DNA of 64,000 nt from Octopus vulgaris (taxonomy: Eukaryota), in the NCBI GenBank assembly GCA_951406725.2, contig OX597819.1, positions 74,214,001 to 74,278,000 of the forward strand. The letters run 5' to 3'. This document shows, in pieces, positions 1 through 54,000 of the stretch (position 1 is its first letter; the number at the start of each line of letters is the position of its first letter). Position numbers: made by a program.

Positions 1-3000
1 ACAGACGCACACACTAACACATACCTATATTTTTTGTTTTTTTATCTCGCCTCACACACACACATACACACACGCACACGCACACACTCACACATACACA
101 CACATCTGTTGCGTTACCAATCTTGTCTCCACTCTTTTGGTTTTAAAAACCTACTTTGCTCTTGTTATCGTAAACTTCCGCCTTTCACCATGTGTAACTC
201 GTAAACACCAGTCGTTTTTTTCTCTATCCCTGTTGCCCGCTTTGGGATCTTTCTTTCCTCTCTCTTCCTTCTTTATGTTTCCGACGAAGAGCTCCGCTCG
301 AAACGTCATACCTTCCTGCTTCCATTTCCTGAGCGCCTATTAATAATAATACTGTAATTGTTCCATTGTTGTTGATTTTTTGTTTTCCCGTTTGGATTAA
401 ATTATATATATATATATATATATATATATATATATATATATATATATATATATATATATATATATATATACATACATACATATATATATGATCGCCATGT
501 TGATTCGCTAGCTTCTGCACGCATTTTTTTTCTCTCCTTGTTTCTCTCCGTGTTTCTTTTCTGTGTATCTTTCTGTTGAAGAGCGTAGGCTCGAAACGTA
601 AAAGACTTGTTTTATTTATATTCCTGAACGCCATACTAATACAATTGTTCGTTTGTATTCCACCTGCCTTCGTCTTTTGTTTATTTTCATAAAGCTTCCC
701 GTTATATATATATATATATATATATATATATATATATATATATATATATATATATATATATATATACACAGGTGGATAAACGATTCGATTCTAGCATGTT
801 TAACAAGTACTTTCTCACGACAATGTAATCTTTAATCTCTTCAAGATATCCTTGGCCTGAAGATTAGCCGGCGGTATACACCTCATTTGGATTTACCACT
901 TCCGAGGTTTCACTCGCTATCAAACATATAGCCCGGATTTTCCTTCTCCATTCTGTAACTCTTGTATTCTTTTTCGCAAACTCGGCAAGCCTGGTTGCCT
1001 ACCGTAGAATATAGAAAGAACTTTTTCCTTCGCGTCGTTTTCGATAAAGAAAAATAATCCTCAGCCTTTCACCTCAATACACCACTATTGTTCTGAAAGT
1101 TGTTTTCTTATATTTACAGCGAATTGCTTGAAGTTAACTGTCTTCCTACACCTCAATCCCTGGATCTTATATGTATGTGTGCGTATGTGTTCCTATGTAT
1201 GTATGTGCTTATGTAGGTATATGTTAATGTATGTATATATGTATGTATGTATGTATGTATGTATGTATGTATGTATGTATGTATGTATGTATGTATGTAC
1301 ATAATGCCGACCTCATACTTACAGTTATTCATTTTGTGTGACTTTTCGTTATGAGAATGATTTTGAGAGAACGTCAAGTTGTAGTTCCTTTGCTTGTTAC
1401 GAATTATTGTGTTTAAGTGACGATGGAATATCGGCTTATATAGTGGTTTTAGCAGTGATAGGTTTGAAAAATCCCATTCTATGTGATGGCCTTCATGAAG
1501 CTGGAAGATATCATCTTCCTTTATCTATTATTTAAATTTAGTTTACGAAAATTGCTCGCTTTCATTTCTGGCGGAAGTTGAAGCTTGTGCTAATATTTTA
1601 CTTTCAGTGTGACAGATTTAGGTTTACGGGAAGAGGAAAGCTTTTATGAATGAACTATTTTTATCACAGTATATAGGTCACAGTCCAATTGCTAGTAGGT
1701 TACTTTCGCTTATCGGGAAATAACCGAGCGGGAAATAGTGAGTTACAGTTTCATGTTACAAATCGTTGTTACTATCGCCGTCGCCAACGTCTTCGTCGTC
1801 ATTATCATTATCATCATCATGTGTATCATCTCCATCAATATAAGAATATGGCAAGAACAGAAACCTACGACTAGATGATAGTTATGACGACGAGAATCAA
1901 CCTAACAGACTGTTTATGGAATTAATAATAATAATAATGTTCGTCCTTCGGTTCGAAGATGACCAACTGACATCATCGGATGGAACTGCTGCCATGAGAC
2001 CTGAGGTGGCTGGTGAGGCCAATCCGGGCAAGGAAGCCCCTCCCACAGGTGGGGCATAAGTGGGTAGGGGCCGTGCTACTGGTGCAGGCGGCTCTAGCTT
2101 TACGCATCTGACGTTTCTGCTCCGCTGACCGAATCCGTCACAGACACGTGTAAATTAAACGTAACTGTGAAGGAGATTCAGTAATTTAAAGAATGTGATA
2201 AGGCTGACCTCTTCTGAATTGCAGGTACAACTCATCAGTTATGACTCAAGAATGGCAAATATATAGACATTCACCAATGAGACTCTCTCAATCCTTTCTT
2301 TGAAGCACAAACGTAAAGGACTTGGTCTTCAAAAGTTCAACCATCAACACCATGCGTCAACCAAAAATCCTCAAGAAATATTTAGAAAGGATAAACTCAC
2401 TTATCCATCACCTATCCGAATTTTCCGTAAAAACCTGTAGAGATAGCTGTTGCAGAATATGAATTAGGCCAAGTTACAACCTCTTAGAAATATCCGAGAG
2501 ATAAAGTCGGATATTAATTGTGAAACAAGAAATCTCATATGTTACATAATCTGGCCTAGTCTTTAGAAATACTACATTGGTTAAACCGGAATCTCCTTGG
2601 GTGAAAGAGAGAACATACACACACATTATTCTTCACTTAAAAGACAATCCAATATATTTTTGAAAAATTGAGGAGCATTTTATAAAAGTAAGTTCTCCAA
2701 AATTAACTTTGCTTTAAAAAACAATAATGAACAAAAGAGAAAATATTTATTTTTTACCTCGGTCTCGAAATATTTCTTAAGAGCTGAAAACGACTCTAAA
2801 CTGAAAAACTTTCCGTTTCTCTTCCATGCTTACCTTTTCTTTTTATTGCTTTTTTTTTTGAAGGTTTGGTGAAACGGGATTTTGACATTTTCACTTCTAC
2901 TCTCAACGATTTCTTTCTAGTTCTGCTACTCGTTTTTTCATTATACACATATTAGTAGGAGAATTGTATGTATGTGTGTGTTTGTGTTTGTGTGTGTGTG

Positions 3001-51000: not shown

Positions 51001-54000
51001 GCCTGAAAGTCTTACAAGAATAATGCATTAGAATATATTTTCATTTCTACTCCAAAAACAAGGACCGGAATTTTGGGGGAGGGAGATTGTCGATTAGATC
51101 GATCCCAGTACGCAAGTGCTACTAAATCTATCGACCTCGAAAGGATGAAAGACAAAGTGTACATCGGCGGAATTTGAACTCAGAACTAAAGCACAGACAA
51201 AATAACGCTAAGCATTTCGCCCGGTGTGCCAACGAATCTGCCAGCTCGCCGCCTTATGTATATTATATATATTAAAGATTAAAAAATAGTATGTAGAATG
51301 AGGAAATTAGTAATTTATACAATGAATTAAATAACGTAGATATAGGTATGTATATATAAATATATATATATATATATACATAAGTAAATATATAGAAAAA
51401 TATATTTAGATTGATGCGCCATAGTCCCATCGGTGTAATACCAATAACATCGATGTTACACAATATTAAATAGAAATATTTATTTCATAAAGGAGAAATA
51501 TATATTGTTTACGATTATAAACGTGATAAGAAAATATAAAGATCAAAATTGATGGAAATATTGTTATCTAACGATTAATATAATCGTCGATATGATTATT
51601 AAGTGGTGAAGCTAAAACACTTCCTGGGTTTTACATACATCTTTCACTTGCTCCTCTCTTTTACTTTAAAGCAAAGTAAATAAATAAATAAATAAATAAA
51701 TAAATAAATAAATAAAATTACGTAAATTAACGAACTCCGGATGATAAGCGAAAGATCGCCATTCACTAGAAAATAATTAAAAACTCATCAAAATATTGTC
51801 TGTTTAAAGAAAGCTAAAATATAATACCTACTGTACAAACAACTTACATGTTTGAAACCACATTCACTTAAAAATATTTCTAAATGATTAAAATATTGTG
51901 TACGTCAAAAAGTCGATTTTTTTTCTCTTAGAAAGTGCGAAGACTATGTGTGTATATATATCACAGATAGCGGGCGTGTGTTTGTGTTTATTGACACATC
52001 ATGACATTCATTATATGTGTGTGTATTTTGTATGTGTGAATGTGTTGACGTCACGGAAGCAATATTATTTTTCGTCAAGAAATAACAAACAAAATTGTGT
52101 TTAATTGTTTTCCTTAATAAACAGTGTCCCAAATATCACAAAAAATTGTACTACACTGCCGAAAGTAAGTATAAAAATAAATATGCAAAAAAATTTTAAT
52201 GAATTATATTATTTCTGACATATTTCCGGTATATATATATATATATATATATATATATATATATATATATATATATATATATATATATATACGTACACAC
52301 TAATTACCTTTTACGAGGAATAAGATTCACAGAGATTATTATTTGGATTTTCTTGGTAAAGATTCGAAGTCACTGTGAACATTTTCCCTGCAAATGTTCA
52401 TACATATAAGTTCTACACTAACAAGTATTGAGCAATCCTTCAGTTTAATGTTAATCTGTTTTTATATATAACATCACGGAAAACATATATACTCTTTTAC
52501 TCTTTTACTTGTTTCAGTCATTTGACTGCGGCCATGCTGAGGCACCGCCTTTAGTCGAGCAAATCGACCCCGGGACTTATTCTTTGTAAGCTCAGTACTT
52601 ATTCTATCGGTCTCTTTTGCCGAACCGCTAAGTAACGGGGACGTAAACACACCAGCATCGGTTGTCAAGCAATGCTAGATGGACAAACACAGACACACAA
52701 ACATATACATACACATACATATATATATACATATATACGACAGGCTTCTTTCAGTTTCCGTCTACCAAATCCACTCACAAGGCTTTGGTCGGCCCGGGGC
52801 TATAGCAGAAGACACTTGCCCAAGGTTCCACGCAGTGGGACTGAACCCAGAACCATGTGGCTGGTTAGCAAGCTACTTACCACACAACCACTCCTACGCC
52901 TATATATATACGTATATTTAATATCTCTCTCTATATAAACGGCAGTTTGTCTGTCTGTGTATCTGTGTGTCTGTCAGGTTGTACCCTCACCCTGACCACG
53001 GCTTTCAACCGATTCTGATGAAACTTGACACACACATAGCCCAATGTCATAATTCAAAACTAACGCAGTGAAAATTTTGAAAAGTTCCCCCAGTTCTGAA
53101 AAAAATCGATAAATTCAACATGGGGTCGAGAATCTAAGCTTTTTATATGCAACACATTTTCTGTCTAGGGGACACAACTCGACCTTTTTATCGCCCAAAG
53201 GGACAGCTAGGAACATCGTATACACAGAAGTATTCGAGTGAAGAGAAGACATTGCAACCTACACATGCGCCTTCGTTCCCTAGAAGGAAAGGACTAGATT
53301 GGGATTAGTCGTTGCCTACTAGGGGCTCTTACATACCCGGGCAACGCCGGACTGTGCTGCTAGTATAATATAAAATAATATATCAATGATACTATGATAT
53401 GTATATATTTGTATCATGAGAACTGAAGCACCTCAAAGGTCAATTGGAAAAACGATAAATGGCATGACAGACCTGACTATTGGGGTCGACTATGAGAGCT
53501 CAAACTTTATTCTTGTTGTTTGTATTTGTAATCGTGTAACATTTTCTCCGTTTTCTCGTTTTTTGTCTGTGTTGTCCCACGTATTCGCTGGCTTTCTTCC
53601 AAAAATTTAATCCCCTTAGCTTAGATTTTGGGGCTCTACCAATTTTGAACAGTCTCAAGTGTAACACGCCGAAAGTGTAATAATGATTGGAAGCTTGACT
53701 GATGAATAGAGAGCCACGGATGTTGCATCCTGTATCGTTCATCTGTCCGTTTTCATTGTTACGTTCTTGTTACGCTTTTGGGATATATATATGTGTGTAT
53801 GTGTGTGTGTGTGTGTGTGTGTGTATGTGCCTCTGTGTGTGTGTGTGTGTGTATATATATACAGTTGGTAAATTTTGATTTACCGGACAGTATATCAAAA
53901 TTCCATAAATAGTATTCAATTTCATTTATTAATTCCAGTTATGGACGTTTAATAATTGAATACTGTGAGTTAAAGTCAGCGTTTTTGTTTCAATATTTGT

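Follow-up and report, generated by a model that had tools for sequence, protein, structure and literature searches.

A probable tandem array of live and dead gene copies in Octopus vulgaris encoding a putative secreted protein with a predicted long-chain helical cytokine fold

Does the genome of Octopus vulgaris hold a cluster of secreted immune-type ligands that is still gaining and losing members? This question is raised by a stretch of 64 kb (assembly GCA_951406725.2, contig OX597819.1, positions 74,214,001 to 74,278,000), referred to below as the window, for which an original prediction, made from the sequence, had proposed a recent birth-and-death cluster of at least four copies of a putative cytokine gene. 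The window has a G+C content of 33%, is free of any N run and is densely populated by (TA)n, (TATG)n and (TAA)n runs. Taken as a whole, the results are probably best explained by a part of a real tandem array, with dead and live copies, that encodes a predicted secreted protein of the IL-6/G-CSF type.

Comparison of the window with itself by blastn revealed extended direct repeats spaced about 12.1, 15.2 and 27.3 kb apart. Positions 10089-17008, for example, matched 22200-29053 with 94.7% identity over 7010 columns, and 19948-23795 matched 35100-38966 with 94.4% identity, the latter match crossing a unit boundary. Three full units were delimited in this way, namely, unit A (8492-20838, 12.35 kb), unit B (20839-35989, 15.15 kb) and unit C (35990-50881, 14.9 kb), all on the minus strand. 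To their left lies the partial unit D (703-8491, minus strand), which comprises an upstream region and a promoter together with exon 1 and some 0.6 kb of the first intron. To their right, the array ends in an orphan 3' flank (50882-51623, minus strand), the start of a further unit that lacks a coding exon. This flank, whose homology begins at 50818 or 50882, is 89 to 96% identical to its counterparts in A, B and C and ends about 80 bp before the expected stop codon (in B, homology reaches to 21582 and the stop codon is at 21662-21664). Because the high-scoring pairs span unit boundaries, the junction itself is repeated between D and A, A and B, B and C, and C and the orphan flank. At least three units thus follow each other head to tail in one orientation with repeated junctions, which is the arrangement of a tandem array. 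A search for the proteins encoded, in which public Octopus proteins were compared with the window by tblastn, found three minus-strand exon sets and none elsewhere in the window, so that each full unit carries a single gene with five coding exons; a unit would accordingly be made up of a TATA-type promoter, this gene, its 3' flank and some 7 kb of upstream DNA. The period of 12-15.5 kb, the single gene with its upstream region per unit and the orphan flank at the right end had all been predicted and were recovered here.

Genes A and B are intact. Gene A (9252-14068, minus strand) has its exons 1 to 5 at 14059-14068, 12393-12550, 11161-11295, 10798-11028 and 9252-9410, the last including the stop codon, and a TATA-like box at 14171-14178; those of gene B (21662-26113, minus strand) are at 26104-26113, 24463-24620, 23272-23406, 22909-23139 and 21662-21820. 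Exon 1 consists of the ATG plus 7 nt followed by GTAAG, and this start exon is present in all four copies, as is the box TATATAAG about 105 nt upstream of the ATG. Exon 2 completes a Tyr codon and encodes the remainder of a hydrophobic leader and the N terminus of the protein; introns 2 to 4 are in phase 0, and the GT-AG sites are all kept in A, B and C. Exons 1 and 2 together encode MNNY-WQYILVLCISVWTSLIQG/ASIKP, in which a hydrophobic segment runs into small residues and which may represent a signal peptide. Besides this leader, the encoded protein of about 230 amino acids has several N-x-T sites and a set of six cysteines that are conserved. Both genes are open across all coding exons and differ by exactly the 7 amino acids that had been predicted, of which 4 are in exon 2 (3 of them in the leader), 1 is in exon 4 and 2 are in exon 5; synonymous differences were found at 6 sites. 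Exons 4 and 5 of gene B are identical to the public O. vulgaris protein P0002 (77/77 and 52/52 residues).

The third copy is a pseudogene, in agreement with the frameshift that had been predicted for it. Gene C (36795-41624, minus strand; exons 1 to 5 at 41615-41624, 39917-40074, 38433-38567, 38073-38300 and 36795-36953) carries a 2-bp deletion in exon 4 at 38257/38256, which leads to a first premature stop at 38223-38225, 10 codons further on, and to two additional stops; a 1-bp deletion in the same exon at 38103/38102 brings the frame back. In all three genes, intron 3 is 132 nt long, in frame and free of stops on the minus strand (11029-11160 in A, 23140-23271 in B and 38301-38432 in C); its sequence is identical in A and B and differs at 1 site in C. 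The O. vulgaris models P0002 and P0001 translate this intron as 44 extra amino acids, and the O. sinensis RefSeq models splice it out, so that the open intron may correspond either to a retained-intron isoform or to an annotation error. Intron 2 contains (TAA)51-type microsatellites (11560-11712 in A, with equivalents in B and C) that create long artificial poly-I, poly-L and poly-V frames on both strands, and these dominate a naive list of open reading frames.

The fourth copy is incomplete within the window. Unit D contains the promoter-proximal region with a TATA-like TATATAAG at 1435-1442, the coding part of the start-codon exon at 1323-1332 (minus strand) and the GTAAG donor that follows it. 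The stretch of D that aligns with intron 1 of the full units stops at about 703-744, beside a (TA)n run, and the leftmost 702 bases of the window are not homologous to the other units. The point at which homology is lost coincides with one of two copies of a short dispersed repeat (265-489 and 57252-57491, 77.6% identical), each of which is followed by (TA)n. It had been proposed that D continues off the left edge; the promoter, exon 1 and donor are indeed in the window, but the homology ends before the edge and the next 702 bases are unrelated to the units; a D gene body may lie beyond the left edge. The proposed number of at least four copies holds in the same partial manner, with three exon sets in A, B and C and a fourth copy reduced to promoter and exon 1.

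Transposon insertions specific to single units had also been proposed, and two were identified. Unit C contains a mariner element of 1292 bp (43467-44758, minus strand) with 42-nt inverted ends that are 86% complementary, a TA at both ends and a decayed transposase fragment at 43712-44137 (Pfam Transposase_1, E-value of 2e-24). Unit B has an insertion of 2.9 kb (32236-35099, plus strand) with a truncated Penelope-like element, including an open reading frame with a GIY-YIG nuclease domain at 32429-32998; the segment 33808-34333 of this insertion is common to unit A. Unit A, in turn, is without about 1.9 kb that is found in B, C and D, the junction being near 17006/17007 (29054-30977 of B are unmatched in A). 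Furthermore, a segment of 1.4 kb is inverted in C (45722-47118) relative to D (3963-5360), B (28671-30057) and A (16626-17006).

The divergence between units was determined from windowed and filtered counts, since misaligned microsatellites and the inversion had inflated the whole-unit Kimura two-parameter distances on MAFFT alignments, which were discarded. The filter removed low-complexity columns, columns near gaps and misaligned blocks. Filtered substitution divergence was lowest for the pair A-B (159/8077, 1.97%), followed by B-C (382/7559, 5.05%), A-C (374/6613, 5.66%), B-D (298/4638, 6.43%), A-D (229/2897, 7.9%) and C-D (316/3820, 8.27%). Of the variable sites, 563 set C apart from the other two units, 121 set A apart and 115 set B apart. 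In the coding exons, Nei-Gojobori counts, which were summed per exon without joining exons, gave for A-B 7 nonsynonymous and 6 synonymous differences (dN of 0.013, dS of 0.041, ratio of 0.33); replacements made up 7 of the 13 differences as compared to 78% expected under neutrality (binomial p of 0.049), a test whose small basis of 13 differences tells against reading much into it. The ratio was 0.49 for B-C and 0.80 for A-C, the latter being the value expected for a dead copy. Such ratios would fit genes A and B being constrained and gene C being relaxed.

On this evidence, a unit of about 12-15 kb was duplicated repeatedly in tandem, the probable mechanism being unequal crossing-over in DNA rich in microsatellites and transposons. 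The copies would be of differing age, with D and C the older ones (5-8% from the rest) and A and B the youngest or the most recently homogenized (about 2%). C would then have been lost by frameshift, and transposons would have entered single units. The birth-and-death character that had been proposed is borne out to the extent that a frameshifted copy stands beside two copies that are open and have all splice sites, that a partial unit and an orphan flank lie at the ends, and that transposons are present in single units: one dead copy, unit-specific insertions and copies of differing age together form such a pattern.

The adjective "recent", which was part of the same proposal, is less secure. 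A and B are the most similar and presumably youngest pair, but similarity along the units is a mosaic, and it may in part reflect gene conversion. B agrees with C against A at 8492-8991, where A, B and C are the odd one out at 29, 5 and 10 sites, respectively, and again at 12492-12991 (15, 6 and 2 sites), whereas in other blocks A equals B. This mosaic suggests gene conversion or unequal exchange between units. A local conversion tract is also suggested over the promoter of D: in the promoter and exon 1, D has 2 differences from A and B over 201 aligned columns (1254-1454 of the window compared with 13990-14190 in A and 26035-26235 in B), as against 10 for C, whereas the neighbouring segments of D are 10-15% divergent.

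All matches of the longest conserved open reading frame of the window were Octopus proteins, led by hypothetical proteins of O. vulgaris with 99% and 89% identity; two O. sinensis loci, whose LOC numbers are consecutive and which share a contig, and a single O. bimaculoides locus came next. The window is accordingly of octopus origin and has no part of human appearance. Two of the public O. vulgaris models, P0001 and P0007, consist of the concatenated exons of two and three copies, respectively. Nine O. vulgaris exon-4 stretches, seven from four public models plus A and B of the window, correspond to 7 distinct peptides, and at least 8 different O. vulgaris exon-4 copies, including the broken C, are located on one contig of 135.6 Mb. 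Because public gene models on the same contig encode 5 further distinct exon-4 peptides, the cluster probably extends beyond the window. HMMER, applied exhaustively to 1.84 billion representatives, retrieved 18 proteins at E-values of 1e-3 or below, down to 27% identity. Those with a named species come only from Octopus species and from the cuttlefish Acanthosepion pharaonis, all coleoid cephalopods, and since the cuttlefish contributes one member, the family spans octopods and decapodiform cephalopods. The alignment of the 18 members shows near-invariant E125, C130, A133, P143, C146 and C159 and the motif LCAPA...C.YP.AC...D..FYC.

The alternative that survives best is that the array is old and that the similarity of A and B is due to concerted evolution, by gene conversion or unequal exchange, instead of recent duplication. 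It is a serious possibility, if a less probable one, and it would account for the mosaic sites and for the promoter of D; moreover, O. sinensis and O. bimaculoides have two annotated loci each, and tandem copies would therefore predate O. vulgaris, a comparison of copies across species that may be biased by annotation quality. On the other hand, the similarity of A and B runs for many kilobases through noncoding DNA. In addition, exon 4 of A, B and C agrees with that of the remaining O. vulgaris and O. sinensis copies at 67-70 of 77 residues, the 7-10 differences being counted against P0003, P0001, P0007, P0004 and P0005, and it shares residues that are seen in none of the other Octopus copies retrieved. 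Because these exon-4 residues are shared by them alone, A, B and C appear to form a young sublineage. One such run of changes is in exon 4 (10798-11028, 22909-23139 and 38073-38300), in which NQTEKEYDQL of other Octopus copies has become NQRKREYDRL, a shift towards basic residues that removes one N-x-T site and falls in the predicted helix B (97-135 in P0005). An old array and a recent duplication of A and B are not exclusive of each other.

What do these genes encode? The O. sinensis protein P0005 served as a full-length stand-in for the window proteins in fold prediction and structure searches; summed over exons 2 to 5, it is identical to A at 203/226 and to B at 204/226 residues (about 90%). 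AlphaFold2, run with the 18-sequence alignment, gave a model with a predicted local distance difference test (pLDDT) score of 84.1 and a predicted template modelling score of 0.77, in which helices at 32-59/61-78, 97-135, 153-175 and 201-229 are accompanied by a separate N-terminal helix at 4-21. These four long helices are predicted to have the fold of long-chain class I cytokines. In a Foldseek search of PDB with this model, 41 of the 46 matches listed, including all of the first 29, were long-chain helical cytokines or hormones. G-CSF was matched with template modelling (TM) scores, normalized by target, of 0.75-0.78 for 1cd9 and 1pgr (root mean square deviation of 3.7-5.8 Å) and of 0.81 for 1rhg; further matches were LIF, IL-11 (4mhl, 0.77), IL-27 p28, prolactin, growth hormone (GH), CLCF1, OSM and IL-12 p35. 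Another line of evidence is provided by the ESM Atlas, in which the feature neighbours of P0005 and of P0010, a member 32% identical to it, are clusters of IL6, IL12, LIF_OSM, GCSF and Hormone_1 at 0.90-0.93. The model of P0010 in the Atlas itself aligned with cardiotrophin-1 at TM scores of 0.65/0.71 over 180 residues and with CLCF1 at 0.51/0.60.

Several points count against so specific an assignment. The fold was predicted for a database relative and not for the spliced proteins of the window themselves; only 2 of the 5 AlphaFold models were confident (pLDDT of 84.1 and 81.7 as compared to 50.3, 44.2 and 39.3), and a run on the single sequence, with a pLDDT of 39.9, was unusable. The Foldseek E-values were weak, the best being 1.6e-2 and none of the matches listed reaching 1e-3, and according to the ESM Atlas shuffled proteins attain 0.9 in 4-10% of cases. 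Pfam searches with the open reading frames of the window and with 18 of 18 family members revealed neither a cytokine model (IL6, LIF_OSM, GCSF, CNTF, IL11, IL12 and Hormone_1) nor any other credible family at E-values of up to 10, and a PDB sequence search with one protein and a profile search gave 0 matches at the same threshold. The fold assignment is thus consistent across methods and derives from models, not from sequence homology. The word "cytokine" in the original prediction is supported at the level of the predicted fold, and no member of the family matches a cytokine family by sequence; the immune-type character proposed along with it is putative.

These observations also feed the next alternative, in which the four helices belong to a secreted protein that acts as a hormone-like, reproductive or neural factor or as a component of saliva or venom, its likeness to IL-6-type cytokines being convergent or too general to point to receptor signalling. 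The lack of sequence similarity to any cytokine family in the Pfam and PDB searches and the weak Foldseek E-values fit this explanation, as does the six-cysteine pattern, which is centred on the B-C region and which we take to differ from the disulfides of IL-6 and G-CSF. However, three partly independent routes, namely, AlphaFold and Foldseek on P0005, language model features of two members that are 32% identical, and the Atlas model of P0010, lead to the long-chain cytokine/hormone group and not to other helical bundles, and we regard another role as rather unlikely. The protein would therewith be a long-chain four-helix bundle of the IL-6/G-CSF/LIF/cardiotrophin type, as predicted on a close relative. 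Judged by its fold, its most likely function is that of a secreted ligand for a class I (gp130/IL6R/Domeless-like) receptor driving JAK-STAT signalling. Since only 4 residues beyond the leader distinguish A from B, an extra copy most likely serves dosage or separate regulation and not the formation of a new ligand.

The weakest alternative, that A and B are two haplotypes of one unit that the assembler laid in tandem, so that the array in the window is one unit shorter, is improbable, given that alignment of A with B shows 14 indel runs of at least 50 bp, 2 of which are of at least 500 bp and which include the 1.9-kb deletion and the 2.9-kb transposon-bearing insert (some of which structural differences between haplotypes could mimic), that local blocks of A and B in which B matches C are 4-7% divergent, that the window has no N gap, and that C and D are clearly paralogous, which shows that the locus does duplicate. 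What speaks for it, and hence against the full count of units, is that the overall A-B divergence, 1.97% (0.2-2.4% along most of the stretch from 10.4 to 17 kb), exceeds the heterozygosity of the species by a factor of only about 1.6, the latter being 1.22% according to the available text of the genome report (PMC10700109). The same text describes an assembly from Oxford Nanopore Technologies reads by NextDenovo that was collapsed with purge_dups (PMC10700109), and a false extra unit could join seamlessly in a tandem array. The claim that the units are real paralogs and not reads assembled twice therefore stands for C and D, which at 5-8% are too diverged from A and B to be alleles, and is aided by the unit-specific insertions; for the pair A-B it is tempered by the proximity to heterozygosity.

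With a real tandem array of a predicted IL-6/G-CSF-type protein as the preferred reading, several known systems can be compared with it. Vertebrate cytokines of the IL-6/gp130 group (G-CSF, LIF, IL-11, IL-27 p28, cardiotrophin-1 and CLCF1), together with GH and prolactin, resemble the octopus family in size (about 200 amino acids when mature), in the N-terminal leader and in the four long helices, here predicted, and are its best structural matches, with TM scores by target of up to 0.81. IL6 and CSF3 have five exons, as the octopus gene has five coding exons. In contrast, sequence similarity between the octopus family and this group is not detectable, and the six conserved cysteines are presumably arranged differently. 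The Unpaired proteins of Drosophila (Upd1-3, acting on Domeless) are likewise invertebrate, lineage-restricted, secreted, helical ligands that are regarded as IL-6-like, a likeness by description; the Upd genes lie close together in the genome. A further example is that of immune-ligand clusters evolving by tandem birth and death, such as type I interferon, which the array resembles in that its units run head to tail and are of staggered age, that one copy is a pseudogene, and that inserted transposons and traces of conversion are seen. An expansion of IL-17-like genes has been reported for octopus. The array differs from such clusters in that its family is unnamed and a candidate ligand only and in that its two intact copies, with 4 amino acid differences beyond the leader, are almost the same.

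To our knowledge, no helical cytokine ligand of invertebrate JAK-STAT signalling has been established outside insects, where Unpaired has this role. In the available text of a 2026 survey, IL-6-family ligands were detected only in vertebrates, Unpaired is the only invertebrate ligand of an IL-6-like kind besides a shrimp lectin, and an IL6R-like receptor, JAK and STAT co-occur in Mollusca "in the absence of a canonical IL6 ligand" (PMC13203501). In the literature searched, which did not cover subscription journals, there was no paper on a helical cytokine of cephalopods or molluscs, and the three LOC identifiers gave 0 matches. It can tentatively be proposed, as a conjecture that we consider doubtful, that the family is a true and very divergent homologue of the IL-6/gp130 cytokines and of Unpaired, representing the missing ligand of the mollusc IL6R/gp130-like-JAK-STAT module, of which O. 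vulgaris is amplifying one sublineage. If so, long-chain helical cytokines would date to the bilaterian ancestor, and O. vulgaris would have at least 8 distinct exon-4 copies on one chromosome as compared to two annotated loci in each of two sister species. Tandem duplication alone is ordinary genome biology; the array indicates a family that is still gaining and losing copies in O. vulgaris, and the family offers concrete candidate ligands for expression against the mollusc IL6R-like receptor.

A scan for tRNA genes found none. To the right of the array, an open frame of 232 amino acids at 55587-56285 (plus strand) looks like the C-terminal part of a retrotransposon open reading frame and had no Pfam match at E-values of up to 10. 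A separate, (TA)n-rich tandem repeat with a period of about 1.5 kb is located at 58199-63716, outside the gene array (58199-60856 compared with 59727-62366, 82.6% identity).

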